A stretch of DNA of 64,000 nucleotides from Candidatus Palauibacter sp. (GCF_965222475.1 NZ_CBDCUB010000008.1:619020-683019), one strand, 5' to 3'; counted from the stretch's first letter, positions 7,413 to 16,867 are shown. Notes: generated from the letters alone by a model not told the origin. Numbers and translations: made by a program.

Positions 7413-8180
7413 ATGCCGACGCGCGCGGAGATTAAGGCCTGGCGGTCGCTGCACCGCGGAAAGGGACGCCGGGAAACCGGGTGTTTCCTGGCGGAGGGGC
7501 GGCGGCTCGTCGGCGAGATGCTCGAGTGGCCGGGCCGCACGGTTGCGGTGCTGCACGCCGATGCGGCGGGCGGCGAACCGGCACTGGAGGTGCTGCTCGC
7601 GCACGCGGTGACGCGGGGTGTACGTACGGAAGCGGTGCCCGAAGCGATCATCCGGACGCTGGCCGATGCCGCCACGCCCCAGCCCATTCTCGCGATCGGC
7701 GAGGTGCCGGCGTACAGCTGGGATGACGTTGGCGGCGGCGCGATCGTGCTTCTCGACGGCGTGCAGGATCCGGGCAATGTCGGCACTCTCGTGCGCACCG
7801 CGCTCGCGCTCGGGGCCGCCGCCGTGATCGGCGTCGGGGAGGCCGCCGATCCCTGGGGGCCGAAGGCGCTGCGGGCCTCGGCGGGAGCGTCGTTCCGCGG
7901 CCCCGTCTTCCGGACGGACACCCGGGATGCCGTGGAGCGGCTGGCCGGGCGCGGGATCCCGATCTGGGTCGCCGCGGCAGGCGCCCCGCCGCTCGAGCGT
8001 CCACCGTCCGGGTCGGTTGCTCTCGCGCTGGGGAGCGAGGCGCGCGGCGTCTCGGCTCCCCTCCTCGCCGCCGCCCACCGCGTCGTCTCCCTGCCGCTCG
8101 CCCGGGGTGTGGAATCGCTGAACGTGGCCTCGGCGGGCGCCATCCTGCTCGATCGCATGCTGAGGCGGACGCCCGATTGA
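7413..8180 (+). CDS. TrmH/SpoU-family RNA 2'-O-ribose methyltransferase
   Basis: SPOUT motifs [34 protein letters not shown] and [20 protein letters not shown]. Confidence 0.8.
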
Positions 8181-8941
8181 CTGAAGCCGTGACCACGGGC
8201 GTGGCCGCACTGCTCGGCGCGGTGGCCGGCTCTTTCCTCAATGTGTGCATCGCGCGCATGCCCGCCGGGGACAGCGTCCTGCGCCCAGGCAGCCGTTGCC
8301 CGGCGTGCCACGCGACGATCCGCTGGCGCGACAACCTCCCCGTCCTCTCCTGGATCCTGCTGCGGGCGCGCTGTCGCGACTGCGGCGGCCGCATCTCCTG
8401 GCGCTACCCCGCGATCGAACTTGCAACGGCCCTCGCCTGGGGTGGCATGGTCTGGATGTACGGCACATCCGTCACCGCCCTGACGGGTGCGGTCCTGTTC
8501 ACGCTCCTCCTCGCGATCGCGGTCATCGACGCGCGCCACTACGTGATCCCCGATCCCCTCTCGCTCGGCGGGTGCGCCGCGGGCCTCGCCCTCTCGGCGC
8601 TTCCGGGGTCGACGCCGCCGCTCGGGGCGATCGCGGGCGCGGTGCTCGGGTTCGGACTTCTCTACGTCGTGGCGTGGCTGGGCGAGAAGGCGTTCCGGAA
8701 GCCGGCGCTCGGAGGCGGCGACGTGAAGATGATGGCGATGGTGGGGGCGTTCCTCGGCCCCGGCGGCGCACTCCTCACGATCTTCCTGGGGTCCCTCGCC
8801 GGGTCCCTCGCCTTCGGTCCCGTCTCACTCAGGACGGGAAAGCCCGTGCCCTTCGGGACCTTCCTCGCGCTCGGCGCGGCGGTGGCATTCCTGTTCGGCG
8901 GCGTTCTCTTCGATTGGTATCTGCGCCTGTCGACACCTTGA
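8177..8941 (+). CDS. pilD: type IV prepilin leader peptidase / N-methyltransferase (A24 family)
   Basis: N-terminal TM helix, tetracysteine zinc motif ([33 protein letters not shown]) and catalytic Asp regions (…[11 protein letters not shown]…[16 protein letters not shown]…). Start overlaps the trmH-family stop. Confidence 0.85.
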
Positions 8942-9023
8942 GACGGTCGCGCGCGGAACACCTGTGTCCCTTGCTTGGGCGCTCTCTTCCCCGCACACCT
9001 GCTCGGCCGGCTGGTCTACTCGC

Positions 9024-9848
9024 TCATCGGCCAGGCCGACGCGGGGGGTAGCCGCGGGGAATGCTGCCCATGAGGCCACACAGGTCATGGTAGGTGGCGG
9101 AGTCCACCGGCAGCGTCCGCAGCGCCGCGTCCGTCGAGGCCCCGTCAAACTTGGCTTCACCGTAGATGATGTCGTTGACCACGCACCAGGTCGATGCCTT
9201 CCCGGCCTCCCGGGATGCCGGCGGGCCGGCTGCCTCCATTGCGGCGAGGAGGTAATCCAGGCCCCGGCCCTCGGGATCCGCCAGATAGATCGCGTATAGG
9301 TCTGAGCTGGCGCGCGGTCCGCTGGGCATGGATTCGTCAAAGTCCGCTGCTTGGGAGCGGGTGTAGATGGCGGCGATCGGATCGTTCGTCTCGTCCCCTG
9401 CCAAGCCGACCATGTGCCTCTCGTACAACCCCACGAGAAGGTCGAACGCGGGCTCGTATGGGACCCCCTCCTCCGGCACGACTGCCCGAATCAACGCAGA
9501 ACGCGCATCGAACCGAACCCCAAAAGGGTATCCCGTGTCCGCCGCCAGGCGGACCAGCGACTGCGCGAGCGCGTCCAGCTCGGCTTGGGGCCGGGGCTCG
9601 AAAAGCTGCGTAAGCACGGCCGCGACCGGCGCGGCGGGGGAAGCCTCCGGATCGCGGCGTTCGACGAGCTGTCGGAGCGCGGTCTCCGGCGTCGGGATGC
9701 GCAGCTCTCCGCCCTCGTCCAGAACCATGGCCCACCGCTGGGCCCATGACTGAGGCCTGGCGTCCCCATCTCGCGCCTGTGCCGCAGCGGGCCACGGCGC
9801 CAAGGCGCTTTGGAGCACTGCCACAACCAACATCGCATCTCGCCTCAT
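9024..9848 (-). CDS. secreted hypothetical protein, module component B1 (paralog of 11107..12093)
   Basis: 274 aa with N-terminal signal-peptide-like segment (MRRDAMLVVAVLQSALAPWPAAAQA). Shares motifs with B2 (…IYLADPEGRGLDYLLAAMEA… versus …VYSADPEGRGRDYVRALFEA…). No family recognised. Confidence 0.5.
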   Translation of the reverse strand: MRRDAMLVVAVLQSALAPWPAAAQARDGDARPQSWAQRWAMVLDEGGELRIPTPETALRQLVERRDPEASPAAPVAAVLTQLFEPRPQAELDALAQSLVRLAADTGYPFGVRFDARSALIRAVVPEEGVPYEPAFDLLVGLYERHMVGLAGDETNDPIAAIYTRSQAADFDESMPSGPRASSDLYAIYLADPEGRGLDYLLAAMEAAGPPASREAGKASTWCVVNDIIYGEAKFDGASTDAALRTLPVDSATYHDLCGLMGSIPRGYPPRRPGR

Positions 9849-9894
9849 GCCTCAGCTCCTCGTCTACTGCAGAGAATCCCTCGCGCCGGACCCG

Positions 9895-11094
9895 TCACGG
9901 GCACGCCGTCCCGGTGTGGCCCAGAGCCGTCGGTCTGTCGAGCACCCAGCCTCCCGCCCATCGGTAGTGCCAGAACGGCGCGGCTGCGGTCGCCTCAGAC
10001 ACGTTGAAATCCATCCCTTCGCGCATAGCTCTCTCCACTTCGGTCAAGAGCATTCTAGCTTGCTCCGTGGCGGTTTCGAGTAACCCTTCGAGCCTTTCCA
10101 ACTTGTCTCGAATATTCTGGGAGGCCCGGCAGCTCTCATACCTCGATGCGTGCTGCTCCTCGTGCTGCTTAACGGGATCATGGAACGACGAACGGGCCGT
10201 CCCGGTGCCACATTCCTCGTTCACCTCGTAAACCGTGGCCGGATCGCCCAGTTGCGCGTGGTTCCCGCAATGCTGCCGGAGTTCGTGCGCCGTCACGACG
10301 CCAGTAGTCTCATAAGCCCAGGGTCGTTCCGGGTTGGTCGGCTTAAGATCCGGATGTATGTAGAACTGCGCGACTATGGTCTCCGCCGGCCAGGAGATGT
10401 AGCGCGTGCCCTGCCACGGTCCCGTTCCCGAGCCCGCAACCAGCCCCGGGATGTTGACGGCGAACCGCCCCCATTCGTCACTTGCCCAAGATTCTGTGTG
10501 CGGAGTAGCGTACACAGGAATGGTACCTGCAGCAGGAAAGGCCCACATCCCTGCCCCCACCTCGACGATCCCGGTCATCGTCGTGTCGGCGACTTCCGGT
10601 CCCGAGATGCTGACGGTCATGCTGATCGTGCTCGTGGCCGTTCCCTCCCAACTGGTGAAGTCCTCTTCGGTATCGGCGGGGCGCGCCACGCCCGCTCCCG
10701 TCACCCAGGCGTAGTTGAGGTCGGAGAGCGTCACGGCGGTGTCGGTCGTCGTCACGTAGCAACCCCCGGTTGAGCCACGCGGCGGTGAGTTGCAGTTCAA
10801 GTTGAACGCCACCACCCTGGATCCCTCGTCGCCGTCGTCGCCGCCCTTGGGGTTGGTCCCGCCGAGACCGATGGGGAAGCCCGTGCCCTTCGGGACCTTC
10901 CTCGCCCTCGGCGCGATCATGGCATTCCTATTCGGGGACACCCTCTTCGATTGGTATCTGCGCCTCCGGATTCCGATGGCCAATCCGTCGTAAGATTCCG
11001 GGTCTCTCTCCGGCGTCCCGGATCTGGAGGCGAAGATGCAGCCAGCTAAGGCGCGTGACGGGGCGCTGGTCCCCAATAGGGTCTGGGCCCGCAA
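9895..11094 (-). CDS. HExxH-motif protein A1, 5'-truncated paralog of 12074..13951. The annotated first ~75 codons are antisense to a pilD 3' fragment and are probably not native.
   Basis: Shares the IGLGGTNPKGGDDGDEGSRV…RGSTGGC.VTTTDTAVTL…TST.SMTVSISGPEVADTTMTGIVEV core and a C-terminal FHDPVKQHEEQH (HExxH) with A2. Homology to A2 begins only at about 10870. Upstream of that the ORF is complementary to a copy of the pilD 3' end. Confidence 0.45.
   Translation of the reverse strand: MRAQTLLGTSAPSRALAGCIFASRSGTPERDPESYDGLAIGIRRRRYQSKRVSPNRNAMIAPRARKVPKGTGFPIGLGGTNPKGGDDGDEGSRVVAFNLNCNSPPRGSTGGCYVTTTDTAVTLSDLNYAWVTGAGVARPADTEEDFTSWEGTATSTISMTVSISGPEVADTTMTGIVEVGAGMWAFPAAGTIPVYATPHTESWASDEWGRFAVNIPGLVAGSGTGPWQGTRYISWPAETIVAQFYIHPDLKPTNPERPWAYETTGVVTAHELRQHCGNHAQLGDPATVYEVNEECGTGTARSSFHDPVKQHEEQHASRYESCRASQNIRDKLERLEGLLETATEQARMLLTEVERAMREGMDFNVSEATAAAPFWHYRWAGGWVLDRPTALGHTGTACP
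10868..10975 (+). repeat. ~108-bp copy of the pilD 3' end (about 90% identical to 8830-8940); tandem-duplication junction
   Basis: Encodes [31 protein letters not shown], near-identical to the PilD C-terminus at 8830-8940, but lies inside the 5' part of the minus-strand A1 ORF. Confidence 0.6.
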
Positions 11095-11106
11095 CCAAGC
11101 CGCATC

Positions 11107-12093
11107 TTACATGATCCCAGGATAACAGAGCTCCTTGAACACCTCGGGATCGGGCGGATCGGCGACGTCGTCGGGCCTGCGGGGGCGGGTGGCTCCGGGC
11201 TCGTACATGAGGAACCGTCCCGCCTCGCACCACACGGACGGGTTGTAGGGTTTCGGGCACTCCGGCAGCGCGAGCCACGCCTCATGCCCCTCCTTGGAGC
11301 TAGCCGTGATCTCCCCATCCGGGCCCATGACCAACGGGACCAACCCCCGGCGGCACACTGGGGGCGGAAGCGGCTCGCTCGCCTCGAACAGGGCGCGCAC
11401 GTAGTCCCGGCCCCGCCCCTCGGGGTCAGCCGAGTAAACACTGATGAGGGCCCCAACCAGTCCGGAAGCGGCGAGCGCGGGGCCCGTGCGATAAGCCTCG
11501 CGGAACGGATCGTCCCCGCCGCCGGCCAGCAGCCGGGCCGCGCGCGTATCGTAAACGCGCACCAGCGCGTCGAACGCCTCCGGGTAGGGCGTGCCCCGCA
11601 GGTAGGATGCGTGGCGCTGCGCCGTCGACAGCGTGGCGTAGGCCTTGGATCGGACCAGGTACTGGTCGGACGAGTACTCCGCGTCGATCAGCAGAATGTC
11701 GGCGAGGGCGTCCACCAGCGCCTCCTGCTCCGCCTGCGTGCGGGGACCGTGCTCCTCCCTCAGCAACGCGACGGCGGGCGAGTTGTCCGGGTCCGGATCG
11801 TTCAGCAGGCTCCAATCGCCGCGTAGCGCCCGCAGCGCCTCGTCCGTGGTCGGCACCCGCCAGCCTCCTCCCTCGTCCAGCACGAGCCCCGGCGCCCACG
11901 CCCGCCCCCGCTCCCCGGGCTCCCGCTCCTGCGCCGGTAACGCTTCCGGCGCGAGAAGCCCGGTCCACGCGACCGCCGCCAATACTCTCCAAATCGATCC
12001 CGTAGCCATGTGCCCTCCTCCTCCGAATGGTCCGCTGGTCGCCGGCGCCGAAGTGCACTGCGGAGACTTCGGACTACCGGCAGGGACCCGCAC
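11107..12093 (-). CDS. secreted hypothetical protein, module component B2 (paralog of 9024..9848). Probable start is the internal Met at about 12009.
   Basis: A signal-peptide-like MATGSIWRVLAAVAWTGLLAPEALPAQ follows an unlikely 28-aa leader. Paralogous motifs shared with B1. Confidence 0.5.
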   Translation of the reverse strand: MRVPAGSPKSPQCTSAPATSGPFGGGGHMATGSIWRVLAAVAWTGLLAPEALPAQEREPGERGRAWAPGLVLDEGGGWRVPTTDEALRALRGDWSLLNDPDPDNSPAVALLREEHGPRTQAEQEALVDALADILLIDAEYSSDQYLVRSKAYATLSTAQRHASYLRGTPYPEAFDALVRVYDTRAARLLAGGGDDPFREAYRTGPALAASGLVGALISVYSADPEGRGRDYVRALFEASEPLPPPVCRRGLVPLVMGPDGEITASSKEGHEAWLALPECPKPYNPSVWCEAGRFLMYEPGATRPRRPDDVADPPDPEVFKELCYPGIM

Positions 12094-13951
12094 GGTGCCC
12101 TTGGATGGGGAGCGTGAGGTACACCCAGGTTGTCCCGCGGCCGCCGCGCTGCGTGGGGGTTACGCCCGGCGTATAGTCCCAATAATCCCACACGAGCTGG
12201 CTGGTGAAGCCCGCAACGGCGCCGCCAGTGGAGCCCAAGACCTTGTCCCTATAATACGTGCGCCATGCACGCTCCAAGTCCTGTTTCAACGTCTGCCGGT
12301 CGCCGCTTACGAGGGTCTCCATGTCCGCTTGGTCCCCTCTCGCCGCCTGGGCGCTAAGGCAGGCGGCGATGGCGTCTTGGTGGTCATTCTCGTGCCCGAT
12401 CAAATCCCTCTCGAACGCTGTCAGGTTCGGCCCCGAACCGCAATTCGTGTTCACCGTGACGAGGTTCGCGCGGGCGGGCAGGGCAGTGGCATGGCAATGC
12501 TGGTTTGCGGGGAGCAGGTTCGCGCCCGGGTATCCACGGTCCTGCGGGTCCAGGTCGTTGTGGACTACGATCGTGGCCGGAATCGTCAGGCTGCCCACGC
12601 CATGCTGGCCGGCCCACGGACCGCTACCGTCAAAGACGGCGTCGTCGGTGAGCGCCGACGTGTGTGTGGGGGGTTCGTACATGCCGAACGTGCCGTCCGT
12701 CCAGGTACCCGTATACGAGACTGAGGAACTCAGCGACACCACCGACGAGGTGCGTGCAGTCACCTCGACGATCCCGGTCATCGTCGTGTCGGCGACTTCC
12801 GGTCCCGAGATGCTGACCGTCATGCTGAGCGTGCTCGTGGCTCTTCCCTCCCACCTGGTGTAGTCCGTTCGGCCCCCTATGGGGCGCGACACGCCCGCTC
12901 CGGTCCGCCAGGCATAGGTAAGGTCGGCAAGCGTCACGGCCGTGTCGGTCGTCGTAACGCGGCAACCTCCGGTCGAGCCACGGCTCGGTGACGAGCAGTT
13001 CAATCGGAACGCCGCGACCCTGGATCCCTCGTCGCCGTCGTCGCCGCCCTTGGGGTTGGTCCCGCCGAGACCGATGCGGCCCGTGCCCGGATTCCGGGGA
13101 GGGATAAGGGTCCCCCATTCCGTGCCCTCGCCGACGAAGTTTAGCACGCAGTCGTCTTCAAATACATCATAGTCCAACCCGACCGGGCACGTCCGTCCCG
13201 TCGTCACGAGGATCTCCTTCATCTGGGCAGGTTCGCACTCCGTTTCGGGTTCGGGGTCGTAGCAGCCCTCGCGCTGCGCCGCGAGCAATGATCGGGGCGC
13301 GGCCCAGCCCGACGCCAGCCTCCAGAGCTCAGCCCACGGTCCGCCCCCCGACGGTCGCGCCGAGGCCCACACCTTGTCGGGCAGCGGAATCCCCACGTCC
13401 TTGAGAATCGCCTTCACGCTCCCGGTCGCCTCCTGACTCGCGCGCTCGGTCCCGGGGAGCAGGCAAACGGCCAGAACGGCCACCCGCTCGGGAAGCACCT
13501 CCTTGCCACCGTCGGACTTGGGCCGGCTCACGGTAACCAGCACCTTGTATTGCTGGCCCCACACCTCGTCGGTGTCACCCTTCGCCTCGGGGCTGAACTC
13601 CAGCACGTACTTCCGGGAGACGTAGCTTCCCGTGGCGGTCCCGAAGTAGAACTCGCACCCCGGCCCGCCGATCCCCTGGATGACCGTCTGCCACGACGGC
13701 AGACTGTCCACATCGGCGCTGAGCCCGGCCTGCGACACGACCGGTGCCCGGGCCGACGCATCCCCACCGGTGGGGGCGGGCTCCCAAAAAAAGTCGGAGC
13801 ACCCCAGGAGTCCTGCCCCCGATGCTCCCGCCACAAGGAATGCCTGCCCGATCCGCAGCCTGAAACGCGGAGGCGCTTCTCGTGGCACTGAAAGTCGGGA
13901 GGGACGACGGCGAAACGACGAGGAGAGACCAGCGCGCGGCCACCTGAACAT
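12074..13951 (-). CDS. HExxH-motif putative lipoprotein A2 (full-length paralog of A1); possible zinc-metallopeptidase-like secreted protein
   Basis: 625 aa. N-terminal hydrophobic stretch ends in LLGC (lipobox-like). Conserved core shared with A1. C-terminal …CGSGPNLTAFERDLIGHENDHQDAIAAC carries an HExxH motif aligned with HEEQH of A1. Confidence 0.5.
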   Translation of the reverse strand: MFRWPRAGLSSSFRRRPSRLSVPREAPPRFRLRIGQAFLVAGASGAGLLGCSDFFWEPAPTGGDASARAPVVSQAGLSADVDSLPSWQTVIQGIGGPGCEFYFGTATGSYVSRKYVLEFSPEAKGDTDEVWGQQYKVLVTVSRPKSDGGKEVLPERVAVLAVCLLPGTERASQEATGSVKAILKDVGIPLPDKVWASARPSGGGPWAELWRLASGWAAPRSLLAAQREGCYDPEPETECEPAQMKEILVTTGRTCPVGLDYDVFEDDCVLNFVGEGTEWGTLIPPRNPGTGRIGLGGTNPKGGDDGDEGSRVAAFRLNCSSPSRGSTGGCRVTTTDTAVTLADLTYAWRTGAGVSRPIGGRTDYTRWEGRATSTLSMTVSISGPEVADTTMTGIVEVTARTSSVVSLSSSVSYTGTWTDGTFGMYEPPTHTSALTDDAVFDGSGPWAGQHGVGSLTIPATIVVHNDLDPQDRGYPGANLLPANQHCHATALPARANLVTVNTNCGSGPNLTAFERDLIGHENDHQDAIAACLSAQAARGDQADMETLVSGDRQTLKQDLERAWRTYYRDKVLGSTGGAVAGFTSQLVWDYWDYTPGVTPTQRGGRGTTWVYLTLPIQGHRAGPCR

Positions 13952-13967
13952 CCATCCTCCCGGGCAG

Positions 13968-14101
13968 AAGGGGACTCACGCCCGGGACTCACGCCCGGGA
14001 CTCACGCCCGGGACTCACGCCCGGGACTCACGCCCGGGACTCACGCCCGGGACTCACGCCCGGGACTCACGCCCGGGACTCACGCCCGGGACTCACGCCC
14101 G
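13968..14101. repeat. tandem array of about 10 copies of a 13-bp unit (CCCGGGACTCACG), 17 bp upstream of the A2 start codon
   Basis: A perfect head-to-tail …gggactcacg cccgggactcacg cccgggactcacg… runs across about 134 bp. Each unit contains a CCCGGG palindrome. The unit length is not a multiple of 3. Confidence 0.85.
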
Positions 14102-14208
14102 AAGATGCTGCGACAGGCCCCCCTCAAACAAGGGAACGGACAGGGGACGACCGGAGCGGGATCGATGAGAAGACCAGGTGGGCCGGGATCCGCCGGACGG
14201 ATGCCGCG

Positions 14209-14905
14209 CTAATCGCGGCGGATCCGGGCTCGCGTCACCTGCGTGTCGGTGCTCGCCACGACCTGGATCCGCACATCGCCGTGCTCGACCACCTCTCCCG
14301 CCTCGGGCACCCGGCCCAGCTCGCCCAGAAGGAAGCCGTTCAGCGACCGGTGCTCGGCCACGGGGAACGACGTGTCGAAAAAGTCGTTGATCTCCCGCAG
14401 TTCGGCGCCGCCATCCACCGCGATCTCGTCCCGCCGCAGCTGGATGATGGGCTCCGGCGGTACATCCGTTTCGTCGACAATGTCGCCGACCAGCTCCTCG
14501 AGGATGTCCTCGAGCGTCACGAGCCCGTCGAGCCCGCCGTGTTCATCCACCACGAGCCCCATGTGCACGCGCCGCGCGCGGAACTGCTCGAGCAGTTCGA
14601 TGAGAATGATCGTGTCCGGCACGAAGTAGGGTTCGCGGGCGAAGCTGGAGAGCGTCAGGTTCCGCCGGCCGCCGAGAAGCGCTTGGTACGCCTCGGTGCG
14701 GTACAGCACGCCGGTCACGTCATCGAGCGACTCGCCGTACACCGGGATCCGGCTGAAGCGCACGTCCGCCAGTGCCTCCGCGATGTCTCCGAGCCTGCGC
14801 GAATCCTCCCAGCCAGGATGTCGACGCGGGGCGTCATGATCTCCCGGGCACGCAGACGGTCGAGAGTGAACACCCGGTCGATGAACTGCCGTTCTCAACG
14901 TGTGC
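14209..14905 (-). pseudogene. truncated, frameshifted paralog of corC (CBS-pair plus CorC_HlyC C-terminal two-thirds only, no DUF21 membrane domain)
   Basis: About 80% nt identity to 15644-16330 of the intact corC (…RIPVYGESLDDVTGVLYRTEAY…VDEHGGLDGLVT…EDILEE…). Homology starts abruptly at about 14905, and a 1-nt deletion near 14810 shifts the frame relative to corC. Confidence 0.6.
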
Positions 14906-15607
14906 ATCTCCCGCATGCCCGCCGGCGAGAGCGTGGTCCGCCCGCGCAGCCGCTGCCCGGCCTGCGGCGCGACGGTCCGCTGGTTCGACAACATCCCCGT
15001 CGTCTCCTGGGTGCTCCTGCGCGCGAGGTGCCGCGACTGTGCGGCCCGGATCTCCTGGCGCTACCCGGCGGTCGAACTCGCCACGCTGGGCATCTGGGTC
15101 GGCATGGCGTGGCAGTACGGGGCGTCGGCCGCCGCCCTCGGCGGCGCGGTCCTGTTCACGCTGCTGCTCGGGATCGCGGTCACCGACGCCTTGCACTACG
15201 TGATCCCCGATCCGCTCTCCCTCGGCGGGCTCGCGTCGGGGCTCGCCGCGTCGCTCCTGCCGGGCCTCACGACGCCGCTCGCCGCGGCCGGCGGCGCGGC
15301 ATTCGGCTTCGGGCTCCTGTTCGTCGTGGGACGCCTCGGCGAGAAGGTTCTCGGAAAACCCGCCCTCGGCGGAGGCGACGTGAAGCTGATCGCGATGGTC
15401 GGGGCCTTCCTGGGCCCGGCCGGCGTCCTCCTCACCATCTTCCTGGGTGCGCTGGCCGGCTCCGTCGTCTTCGGGCCGGTCTCGCTCCGGACCGGGAAGC
15501 CGGTTCCGTTCGGGACGTTCCTCGCTCTCGGCGCCGCCGTCTCGTTCCTGTTCGGCGATGCGCTGATCGACGCCTATCTGCGCCTCGCCACGTCCGCGAG
15601 CGGGTGA
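14900..15607 (+). CDS. prepilin peptidase paralog lacking the N-terminal about 20 residues (first TM helix); possibly non-functional
   Basis: [51 protein letters not shown]… is about 75% identical to PilD at 8177-8941. Homology begins at …FLNVCI… at about 14905, exactly where the corC-derived sequence ends. Confidence 0.6.
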   Translation: MCISRMPAGESVVRPRSRCPACGATVRWFDNIPVVSWVLLRARCRDCAARISWRYPAVELATLGIWVGMAWQYGASAAALGGAVLFTLLLGIAVTDALHYVIPDPLSLGGLASGLAASLLPGLTTPLAAAGGAAFGFGLLFVVGRLGEKVLGKPALGGGDVKLIAMVGAFLGPAGVLLTIFLGALAGSVVFGPVSLRTGKPVPFGTFLALGAAVSFLFGDALIDAYLRLATSASG

Positions 15608-15643: not shown

Positions 15644-16867
15644 CTAGCGCCGGCGGATGCGTGCGCGGGTCACCTGCGTGTCGGTGGTCTCGACCACATG
15701 GATCCGCACGTCGCCGTGATCCAGGACCTCGCCCGCTTCCGGAACCCGTCCGAGTTCACCGAGCAGAAACCCGTTGAGGGAGCGGTGCTCGAGCACCGGG
15801 AACGAAGTTCCGAAAAAGTGGTTGATCTCCCGAAGTTCCGTCGCCCCGTCCGCGAGGATTTCGTTCCGGCCGAGCGCGACGATCGACTCCCCCGGCTCGT
15901 CCGTCTCGTCCTCGATGTCGCCGACGACTTCCTCCAGGATGTCCTCCATCGTCACGAGTCCGTCGAGCCCGCCGTGTTCGTCGACGACCAGCGCCATGTG
16001 CACCCGGCGCGCCCGGAACTGCTCCAAAAGTTCGATCAGGGTGATCGTCTCGGGCACGAAGTAGGGTTCCCGGGCGAGCTTCGAGAGCGGGACATCCCGC
16101 TGCCCGTCGAGGAGCGCCCGGTACGCCTCGGTCCGGTACAGCACGCCCGTGACGTCATCCAGCGAGTCGCCGTACACGGGGATCCGGCTGAAGCGGAGGT
16201 CGGACAGTTCGTCCTCGATGTCGCCGAGGCGGCGCGAGTCCTCCCACGCGAGGATGTCGACCCGCGGGGTCATGATCTCCCTCGCACGCAGCCGGTCCAG
16301 GGTGAACACCCGGTCGATGAACTGGCGCTCGTGCGCCTCGATGTCGCCCGCCTGCTGGCCGAGGCGCGCCATGGCGCGGATCTCCCACTCGCTCACGTGC
16401 GTGGCCGACTCGGCCTCGGGAAGCACCCGCCCGACGAGCCATTCCAGGGGTAGCACCACCGGCAGGAGGAAACGGCCGAGCCCCCCGATGAAGGGAGCGG
16501 CGAGGAGGGACAGGCGTTCCGCGTTGCGCGCCGCGAAGCTCTTCGGCGTGATCTCCCCGAAGATGAGGACGAGAAGCGTCATCACGCCCGTGGCGAGACC
16601 CACCCCGGCGGAGCCGAACAGCTCGGTCGCGGTGTAGGTGGCGACGGCGGCGGCGCCGATGTTGGCGACGTTGTTCCCGATCAGGATCGTGATGAGGAGC
16701 CGCTCGGGGTGCTGTTTCAGCTTCTCGAGCGAGCGCGACCCGGGGCGCCGCTCCTGCGCGAGCGCCCGGACCCTCGTTTCACCGAGCGAAAAGAGCGCGA
16801 TCTCGGTGCCGGAGAAGAAGCCCGACAGCACGAGGAGGAGCGCGAGGAGCGCGAGGGTGCCGATCAC
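15644..16867 (-). CDS. corC: CorC/HlyC-family transporter-associated protein (DUF21 TM domain, CBS pair, CorC_HlyC)
   Basis: 407 aa with four N-terminal TM helices, CBS-pair region (…REIMTPRVDILAW…RIPVYGDSLDDVTGVLY…) and C-terminal transporter-associated domain. Confidence 0.85.
   Translation of the reverse strand: MIGTLALLALLLVLSGFFSGTEIALFSLGETRVRALAQERRPGSRSLEKLKQHPERLLITILIGNNVANIGAAAVATYTATELFGSAGVGLATGVMTLLVLIFGEITPKSFAARNAERLSLLAAPFIGGLGRFLLPVVLPLEWLVGRVLPEAESATHVSEWEIRAMARLGQQAGDIEAHERQFIDRVFTLDRLRAREIMTPRVDILAWEDSRRLGDIEDELSDLRFSRIPVYGDSLDDVTGVLYRTEAYRALLDGQRDVPLSKLAREPYFVPETITLIELLEQFRARRVHMALVVDEHGGLDGLVTMEDILEEVVGDIEDETDEPGESIVALGRNEILADGATELREINHFFGTSFPVLEHRSLNGFLLGELGRVPEAGEVLDHGDVRIHVVETTDTQVTRARIRRR

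Follow-up and report, generated by a model that had tools for sequence, protein, structure and literature searches.

We analysed a two-gene module, here called A and B, in a 64-kb stretch of DNA (the window; G+C ~69%) from a metagenome-assembled genome of Candidatus Palauibacter, an uncultured marine representative of Gemmatimonadota. Judging from the sequence, the module is probably built from two undescribed protein families and is laid out like the polymorphic toxin/immunity systems. On balance, and with no great assurance, we read it as a polymorphic effector gene with a gene for its periplasmic immunity or inhibitor partner, accompanied by an orphan spare cassette. Our confidence is high for the architecture and for the switching of cassettes and moderate for an effector/immunity function; toxicity to neighbours, immunity as the role of B and the route of delivery are what we infer from the comparisons below.

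The tandem lies on the minus strand of the window, where a full-length A2 with B2 is followed by a 5′-truncated A1 with B1, and remnants of pilD and corC flank the whole (Table 1). Two sister loci, L001 and L005, match the window in the same order, at ~95-97% nucleotide identity, through corC, the remnants pilD′ and corC′, an array of 13-bp repeats and the N-terminal part of A. Here the alignment skips from window position 12761 to ~10888: the C-terminal region (CT) of A2, B2 and a pilD fragment (2203 bp) are missing, and A1-CT, B1, pilD and trmH continue after the skip. The sole module of these loci consists of an A2-type N-terminus (94-96% amino acid identity), an A1-type CT (98%) and B1 (98-99%), and protein P0002 of a sister genome is such an A2 N-terminus fused to an A1 CT. 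The switch occurs within the core, a direct repeat present in both A copies. At the sites where the two window copies differ, the L001 core follows A2 as far as 12983 and A1 from 12974 onwards, bar one site, and the L005 core alternates A1/A2/A1/A2 ahead of its A1-type CT. The sister cores are mosaics of both window core copies, and therefore recombination between core repeats swaps the CT+B cassette, in agreement with the recombination between copies that an earlier note on this DNA had suggested. The ~320-bp core thus acts, with high confidence, as a homology arm for the exchange of CT+B cassettes. L001 is best explained by one crossover between both cores of a window-like ancestor, and L005 needs extra conversion tracts. 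Because the 5′ part of the window A1 core differs from L001 (11 differing sites), L001 would be the crossover product of a two-copy ancestor and would not represent a pre-insertion state.

How, then, are the two copies in the window related to each other? The long core shared by A1 and A2 and the paralogy of B1 and B2, both claimed in the earlier note, were recovered with 45% identity over 316 amino acids (E=1e-64) and 34% over 222 amino acids (E=5e-18), respectively. The HExxH motif likewise stands in both A copies, as HENDH in A2 (nt 12394-12380, residues 520-524) and HEEQH in A1 (nt 10164-10150). The core repeats lie 2203 bp apart; their nucleotide identity is 94% between 10558-10663 and 12761-12866, and 86% between 10678-10876 and 12881-13079. 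The short near-identical tracts described before proved to be the core ends: in the list of informative sites the copies are identical at 12761-12817 and ~13017-13076, with ~40 differing sites between. In a comparison of 11 modules, A1-CT and A2-CT share 32% of amino acids and B1 and B2 38%.

The earlier note had derived this tandem from a duplication in place, in which a ~2.1-kb stretch comprising B, part of A and the 3′ end of pilD was copied, the copies diverged, and gene conversion maintained identity in short tracts. Direct repeats with a period of 2037-2203 bp, identical junction tracts and conversion-like mosaics in the sister genomes agree with it. However, the 32% and 38% identities of CT and B stand against a synonymous divergence of ~0.01-0.04 between the window and its sister strains, and the copies are different alleles inside ~94%-identical junction tracts. 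They are not each other's closest relatives either: A1-CT/B1 share 98-99% of their residues with the single, chimeric module of the sister genomes, and the L002 and L006 modules, which other Palauibacter genomes carry at sites unrelated to this one, share 65% with A2-CT and 86-87% with B2. We therefore regard duplication and diversification in place as highly improbable.

The fragment of pilD between B2 and A1 bears on the same point. It does stand at the edge of the A1 homology, as had been noted, with the pilD copy at 10870-10965 abutting the first shared A codon (IGLGG, 10872); its identity to resident pilD is 86%, not ~90%, its C-terminal tail and last codons are different, and it is 77% identical to pilD′. 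The join between the fragment and the A core (~10868-10872) shows no homology and marks the end of the A2-CT/B2 cassette. Since the fragment is 14% off resident pilD and has a different tail, its presence is consistent with co-arrival of a type I cassette of foreign or allelic origin, at whose source A-B would also adjoin pilD. The truncation of A1 was seen correctly, but 292 residues of A2 are absent from it and not ~225. Its open reading frame (ORF) extends to a TTG at 11094, and the first 74 codons (11094-10873) are antisense of the pilD fragment plus spacer. No Shine-Dalgarno sequence precedes this TTG and A1 has no signal peptide; a search of the module for a sigma-70-like promoter or an intrinsic terminator gave nothing beyond one chance-level match. 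The ratio of nonsynonymous to synonymous polymorphism (pN/pS) of the orphan against the sister genomes was based on too few differences to reveal selection. Between the N-terminal region of A (13076-13951) and the corresponding 10001-10876 of L001 and L005 there are 14-18 nonsynonymous and 2-3 synonymous differences (pN/pS ~2; small numbers).

One might also suppose that the assembler joined two strain haplotypes into a false tandem, given that the source is metagenome-assembled and that close strains with the alternative cassette exist. This is scarcely credible, because the join of pilD fragment and A core offers the assembler no shared sequence to bridge and the mosaicism of the L001 and L005 cores points to an ancestor that had both copies. 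Moreover, the pilD fragment is unlike both resident pilD (86%) and pilD′ (77%), and comparable orphan arrangements occur at independent loci.

The outer boundary of the locus carries a second scar. The pilD and corC fragments reported earlier are genuine. At their junction (14894) two 5′-truncated genes meet head to head, and the join is illegitimate. In locus L009, A-B sits directly between full corC and pilD. The remnant corC′ is 93.8% identical to L009 corC, and the full resident corC 80%; the 3′ end of pilD is 95% identical to L009 pilD, and pilD′ 79%. Within the window, corC′ and resident corC share ~76-87% in sampled segments, and pilD′ and full pilD ~78%. Thus corC′ and full pilD are L009-like (94-95%) and full corC and pilD′ are not (~79-80%), and therefore a block would have been imported beside the resident genes. 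A pilD-B-A-corC′ block from an L009-like lineage could have entered a genome with adjacent pilD and corC, an arrangement without A-B that the pilD′-corC side preserves. Homology near trmH/pilD may have anchored the block, with an illegitimate join made within pilD, a mechanism that resembles homology-facilitated illegitimate recombination. This account is the simplest, and its mechanism is our proposal from the sequence comparisons. Later exchanges would have overwritten part of the block, because the A N-terminus is only ~80% identical to that of L009.

Table 1. Features of the A-B locus, in window coordinates
Feature	Position	Strand	Remarks
trmH/SpoU methylase	7413-8180	+	
pilD (prepilin peptidase), full length, overlaps trmH end	8177-8941	+	ORF call and family match
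B1, partner of A1-type CT, 274 amino acids	9024-9848	-	own ribosome-binding site GAGGAG and signal peptide
A1, orphan 5′-truncated cassette, frame intact	9895-10872	-	core 10872-10558 and type II CT 10557-9898
Core repeat copy 1, inside A1	10558-10876	-	
pilD 3′ fragment, foreign or allelic: last ~36 codons, own tail and stop	10870-10993	+	
B2, partner of A2-CT, 300 amino acids from ATG 12009	11107-12009	-	
A2, full-length gene, 625 amino acids	12074-13951	-	
Core repeat copy 2, inside A2	12761-13079	-	
Perfect 13-bp tandem array, 10.1 copies	13971-14101	-	
corC′ remnant, C-terminal ~228 codons (CBS and CorC_HlyC)	14209-14894	-	
pilD′ remnant without first ~20 codons	14900-15607	+	convergent with full corC
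corC/CNNM-family gene, full length, resident copy	15644-16867	-	

ORF calling placed A1, A2, B1 and B2 at the positions given in the earlier note, and only the start of B2 had to be moved. The listed GTG at 12093 (range 11107..12093) overlaps A2. Because a strong Shine-Dalgarno sequence, GGAGGAGGAGGG, lies just before ATG 12009 and the homologues begin at the equivalent position, this ATG is most likely the start of B2.

The A protein is probably exported and lipid-anchored, with a lipobox, a lineage-specific N-terminus, an immunoglobulin (Ig)/PKD-like core and a fast-evolving zincin-like CT of ~220 amino acids. In A2 the signal peptide carries the lipobox LLGC with Cys51 (nt 13810-13799), which fits [LVI][ASTVIL][GAS]C (...FLVAGASGAGLLG-C51 after a hydrophobic stretch, by pattern match alone). 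Residues ~52-292 form the lineage-specific region, residues 293-397 (nt 13075-12761) the Ig/PKD-like core, for which profile search gave a weak PKD-domain match, and residues 398-625 the type I CT with its terminus GHRAGPC (12100-12080). A twin-arginine translocation (Tat) signal was considered for the long Arg-rich N-terminus of A2 and dropped: the conserved motif there is RPSR, which lies ~25 residues before the hydrophobic region, and no twin-arginine box is adjacent. When 11 Palauibacter A sequences were aligned, the N-terminal ~400 residues were conserved and the C-terminal ~220 residues split into about five types, with C486, N501, C504, H520, E521 and H524 retained in every type.

The distribution of A depends on the method of search. 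By word index, A2 had ten relatives among 5.8 billion proteins, and the named ones all belonged to Candidatus Palauibacter, Gemmatimonadota; a word-indexed search with an alignment of 84 members gave 3 proteins only. In the exhaustive HMMER scan, the A core+CT family amounted to 204 clusters at 50% identity. Most of them cover core+CT alone (~320 amino acids); their N-termini are varied, often with a lipobox plus a Gly/Asp-rich linker, and the members whose source was checked are all from metagenome assemblies. Two scans of metagenome contigs from JGI, with the A and the B alignments, detected no relatives of either protein. The supposition of an undescribed module therefore stands as far as the absence of annotation of both families is concerned, but the 204 clusters show that the A family is not confined to this locus.

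The HExxH motif is invariant in 84/84 diverse members, and so are the P of GxGPW and the N..C of VNxxCG. The Cys at +7 from the second His of HExxH is 90% conserved. The Glu at +21 from the same His, present in 54% of the ungapped sequences, A1 and A2 included, and the C-terminal tail H...C (HxGxxGC), present in 89/125 sequences, are not invariant. An aspzincin GTxD motif in the CT tail was also considered and dropped, the residue following GT being variable. Nothing was found for A1, A2, B1 or B2 in Pfam, NCBIfam, PADLOC and PHROGs, in line with the earlier reader, who could place neither protein in a known family, and none of the 84 A-family members scanned reached a Pfam threshold. Below the threshold, three members matched DUF922 over the HExxH segment, namely P0057 (25.6 bits; cut-off 27) and, more weakly, P0156 and P0141 (16.5 and 14.1 bits). 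These matches span profile positions 56-149 of 153 and include both VN..CG and HExxH; A1 and A2 themselves gave zero match to DUF922 even at E<=10, and one family member touches DUF3152. DUF922 (PF06037) has been predicted to be a secreted zincin-like metalloprotease by Lenart et al. (PMC3650047). The metallopeptidase-like reading of the earlier note thus gains from the family-wide HExxH and from the weak DUF922 matches of three members. We infer that A-CT is a zinc metallopeptidase acting outside the cytoplasm.

The B protein begins with a signal peptide whose A|Q site is conserved (its end reads ALPA|QE in B2), and contains two invariant Cys residues. Its AlphaFold2 model is confident, with a predicted local distance difference test (pLDDT) score of 83, and forms an all-alpha solenoid whose first 34 residues are disordered; the structural neighbours of the model are generic and HEAT/ARM-like only. 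The signal peptide of B, its constant place beside A and its co-variation with the CT of A all accord with what had been proposed for this partner. B is probably exported and specific for the CT encoded just upstream, and most likely blocks the cognate CT in the periplasm of the producer.

The pairing was traced across loci fetched from other genomes with hidden Markov models built from the A and B alignments. Every A match in these loci has a B match immediately downstream, and this holds for distant members with ~27% CT identity on contigs of 59-71% GC (L012, L013 and L014). Identity of B follows that of CT (Spearman 0.74) and not that of the N-terminus (0.14) in 11 modules compared as 55 non-independent pairs. 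CT and N-terminus are uncoupled in single comparisons as well: window A2 and the L001/L005 proteins share 95% of the N-terminus and 32% of the CT, L002 and L010 share 98% of the N-terminus, 28% of the CT and 39% of B, and window A2 and L002 share 62%, 65% and 86%, respectively. On chromosome NZ_OZ250143.1 there are three modules with different CT/B types. At L006 (~10503-10516) and L008 (~10962-11014), both on this chromosome, A is split into two overlapping ORFs, which may be either a frameshift pseudogene or an assembly error.

Neighbours of A-B are often transposases, group II introns or genes of conjugative elements. L011 holds an A fragment of CT only with B beyond an insertion sequence (IS) and a separate B fragment near other IS copies; extra B fragments were also found in L008 and L014. 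The L011 contig (1-20801) is an island with several IS elements, a phage-type integrase, AlpA, a diverged A-B pair, the CT-only fragment with B and the B fragment. In L003 (13073-13786) and L010 (8000-8713) a signal-peptide protein of 237 amino acids is encoded ~0.5-1 kb downstream of A-B. Weakly similar to B (E about 5e-6) and bearing the motif ENGSRTQAELDAYA, this protein appears to be a solo B-like paralogue.

From these data the following working of the locus can be proposed. A2-B2 (type I) would be the expressed pair, and A1′-B1 (type II) a displaced orphan, promoterless and signal-less, whose ~320-bp core is kept as a homology arm. Recombination of core with core would delete type I and place the type II CT, along with B1, behind the A2 N-terminus in one fused gene. 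New cassettes would be acquired by recombination with foreign alleles; conserved A sequence would provide the anchor, and the opposite end would be joined illegitimately. Import with an illegitimate far end would therefore explain the pilD 3′ fragment after B2 and, further outward, the corC′/pilD′ remnants. The strain of the window would deploy type I yet keep B1, and so stay protected against the type II CT of its sister strains.

Could the same genes have a peaceful function? A secreted or surface-anchored zinc protease with a periplasmic inhibitor or chaperone might act on host (sponge or coral) or environmental substrates. Differences among hosts or substrates would then drive the diversity of both CT and B, and recombination would have left the spare cassette as a by-product. 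A as a lipoprotein with Ig-like and zincin-like domains, B as an exported protein conserved with strong motifs across distant taxa, the single fold common to all CTs and the failure to find toxin-trafficking domains would all suit such a pair. We consider it rather unlikely, since it leaves unexplained the tight co-transfer of CT and B uncoupled from the N-terminus, the intact orphan CT+B cassettes and solo B copies, the three differently typed modules in one genome and the replacement of CT among near-identical strains.

Several observations nevertheless weigh against a toxin/immunity pair. Neither toxin-trafficking domains (RHS, PAAR, TPS, LXG, MafB-N) nor Pfam Tox or Imm families were found in the window proteins or in the 84 A-family members. 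Classical polymorphic toxins carry unrelated toxin domains, and by their alignments all CT types belong to one fold family. The CT is predicted from sequence to be a peptidase or a toxin, and no A-family member reaches the gathering threshold of DUF922 (27 bits). The AlphaFold2 model of A2, made from the 11-sequence alignment, was unusable (pLDDT 29.7), and the HExxH helix appears in this low-confidence model only. Profile searches of PDB sequences with A detected no zincin, only Gly-linker/Ig artefacts of single-chain variable fragments (scFv) and the weak PKD match of the core. The co-variation of CT and B was calculated on non-independent pairs of related modules. B is better conserved than CT (86% versus 65% within type I) and is recognisable in distant taxa, which could reflect a function of its own. 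Finally, if B2 is an immunity protein, the sister genomes without CT-I/B2 would be sensitive.

The region upstream of A is variable in another way. The unit of the 13-bp array, GGGCGTGAGTCCC in the mRNA sense, is repeated up to 20 nt before the A2 ATG. It stands just before the conserved ribosome-binding site (GGAGGA) and ATG of A in every Palauibacter locus, at any genomic site, with 10 copies in the window, 5-6 in L001, 4 in L005, L008 and L009, and 3 in L003 and L010; in L002 and L006 the unit is present once, in degenerate form. No Rfam match was obtained for the sequence upstream of A2, array included. The array may be an operator array, an element of the 5′ untranslated region or a contingency repeat. 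In L001 (9916-9925) the ~110 bp between the corC′ stop and the array (window 14102-14208) are absent; the array directly follows the corC′ stop, and therefore the promoter for A would lie elsewhere or within the array. A poly-C tract ~70 nt before the A start has 13 C in L002 (~9935-9950) and 10 C in L006 (~9940-9950), loci that are otherwise very similar, and is a second simple-sequence length polymorphism before A.

Such repeats recall antigenic or phase variation, and A might be a surface lipoprotein that evades phage or host by means of a silent cassette, as in pilE/pilS or vlsE, with B as an accessory factor for export or folding that must match the CT. A promoterless 5′-truncated cassette with a homology arm, recombinational switching between strains and the copy-variable 13-bp repeat and poly-C tract all resemble these systems. 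However, a catalytic-looking motif is strictly conserved in the very domain on which selection for variation is supposed to act, there is a single spare cassette, each cassette includes a partner gene, and solo B copies are hard to explain. We find this explanation improbable.

The preferred reading, an effector with a cognate partner, can be compared with several known systems. Polymorphic toxins with orphan CT/immunity cassettes include CdiA-CT/CdiI, Rhs-CT/RhsI and Neisseria MafB/MafI (Zhang et al. 2012, PMC3482391; Jamet & Nassif 2015, PMC4436062). A-B has in common with them a conserved N-terminal part with a sharply bounded variable CT, a small cognate gene right downstream that travels with the CT, 5′-truncated orphan cassettes that keep a homology tract, and several differently typed loci per genome with switching by homologous recombination and links to mobile DNA. 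Unlike them, A has a lipoprotein signal only and no known trafficking domain, its CT types have all diverged within a single zincin-like family and are not unrelated folds, and B, which carries a signal peptide, forms a widely conserved family of its own; the toxicity and immunity of A-B are deduced by analogy.

A closer parallel for the anchor is the SitA/SitI system of Myxococcus, lipoprotein polymorphic toxins delivered by outer-membrane exchange, in which the lipoprotein anchor alone can act as a delivery signal (PMC5562445). SitA/SitI and A-B share a lipobox-bearing polymorphic effector, an adjacent cognate gene and horizontal mobility, and are unrelated in sequence. Most SitA toxins are nucleases, their immunity is cytoplasmic, and they depend on TraA/TraB. 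For A, delivery by outer-membrane vesicles or outer-membrane exchange is a guess. With DUF922 the common ground is the segment of VN..CG and HExxH over which the three family members match weakly, and A differs from it in having the Ig-like core, the GxGPW motif and the C-terminal HxGxxGC tail. In the serralysin-type pairs AprA/AprI and PrtA/Inh an exported zinc metalloprotease is encoded beside a signal-peptide inhibitor that protects the periplasm of the producer. A-B likewise places an exported putative zinc protease next to a signal-peptide partner; unlike A-B, the serralysin pairs have a small beta-barrel inhibitor and a type I-exported metzincin, without cassette polymorphism or orphan. 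Among the periplasm-acting type VI effectors, as in Tae/Tai and Tse1/Tsi1, a signal peptide on the immunity protein indicates a toxin that acts in the periplasm. Unlike these effectors, A is linked to no PAAR, VgrG, Hcp or MIX, and the enzyme family differs.

Only tentatively do we extend this comparison to a whole undescribed and widespread class of weapon, interbacterial or host-directed. It would combine a lipid-anchored zincin deployed without secretion apparatus (for example by vesicles or membrane exchange), an alpha-solenoid periplasmic immunity protein, core-mediated switching and expression tuned by the 13-bp array.

To our knowledge, no toxin/immunity-type system has been characterised in Gemmatimonadota to date, and A-B, if our reading is true, would add one to this phylum. 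The locus keeps the scars of cassette import, one flank anchored by homology and the opposite flank joined illegitimately, and three near-identical genomes capture the switching itself, one in a two-cassette state and two in independently recombined one-cassette states. The A-B types may also serve as a marker of competition between strains of Palauibacterales that are associated with sponges and sediments.

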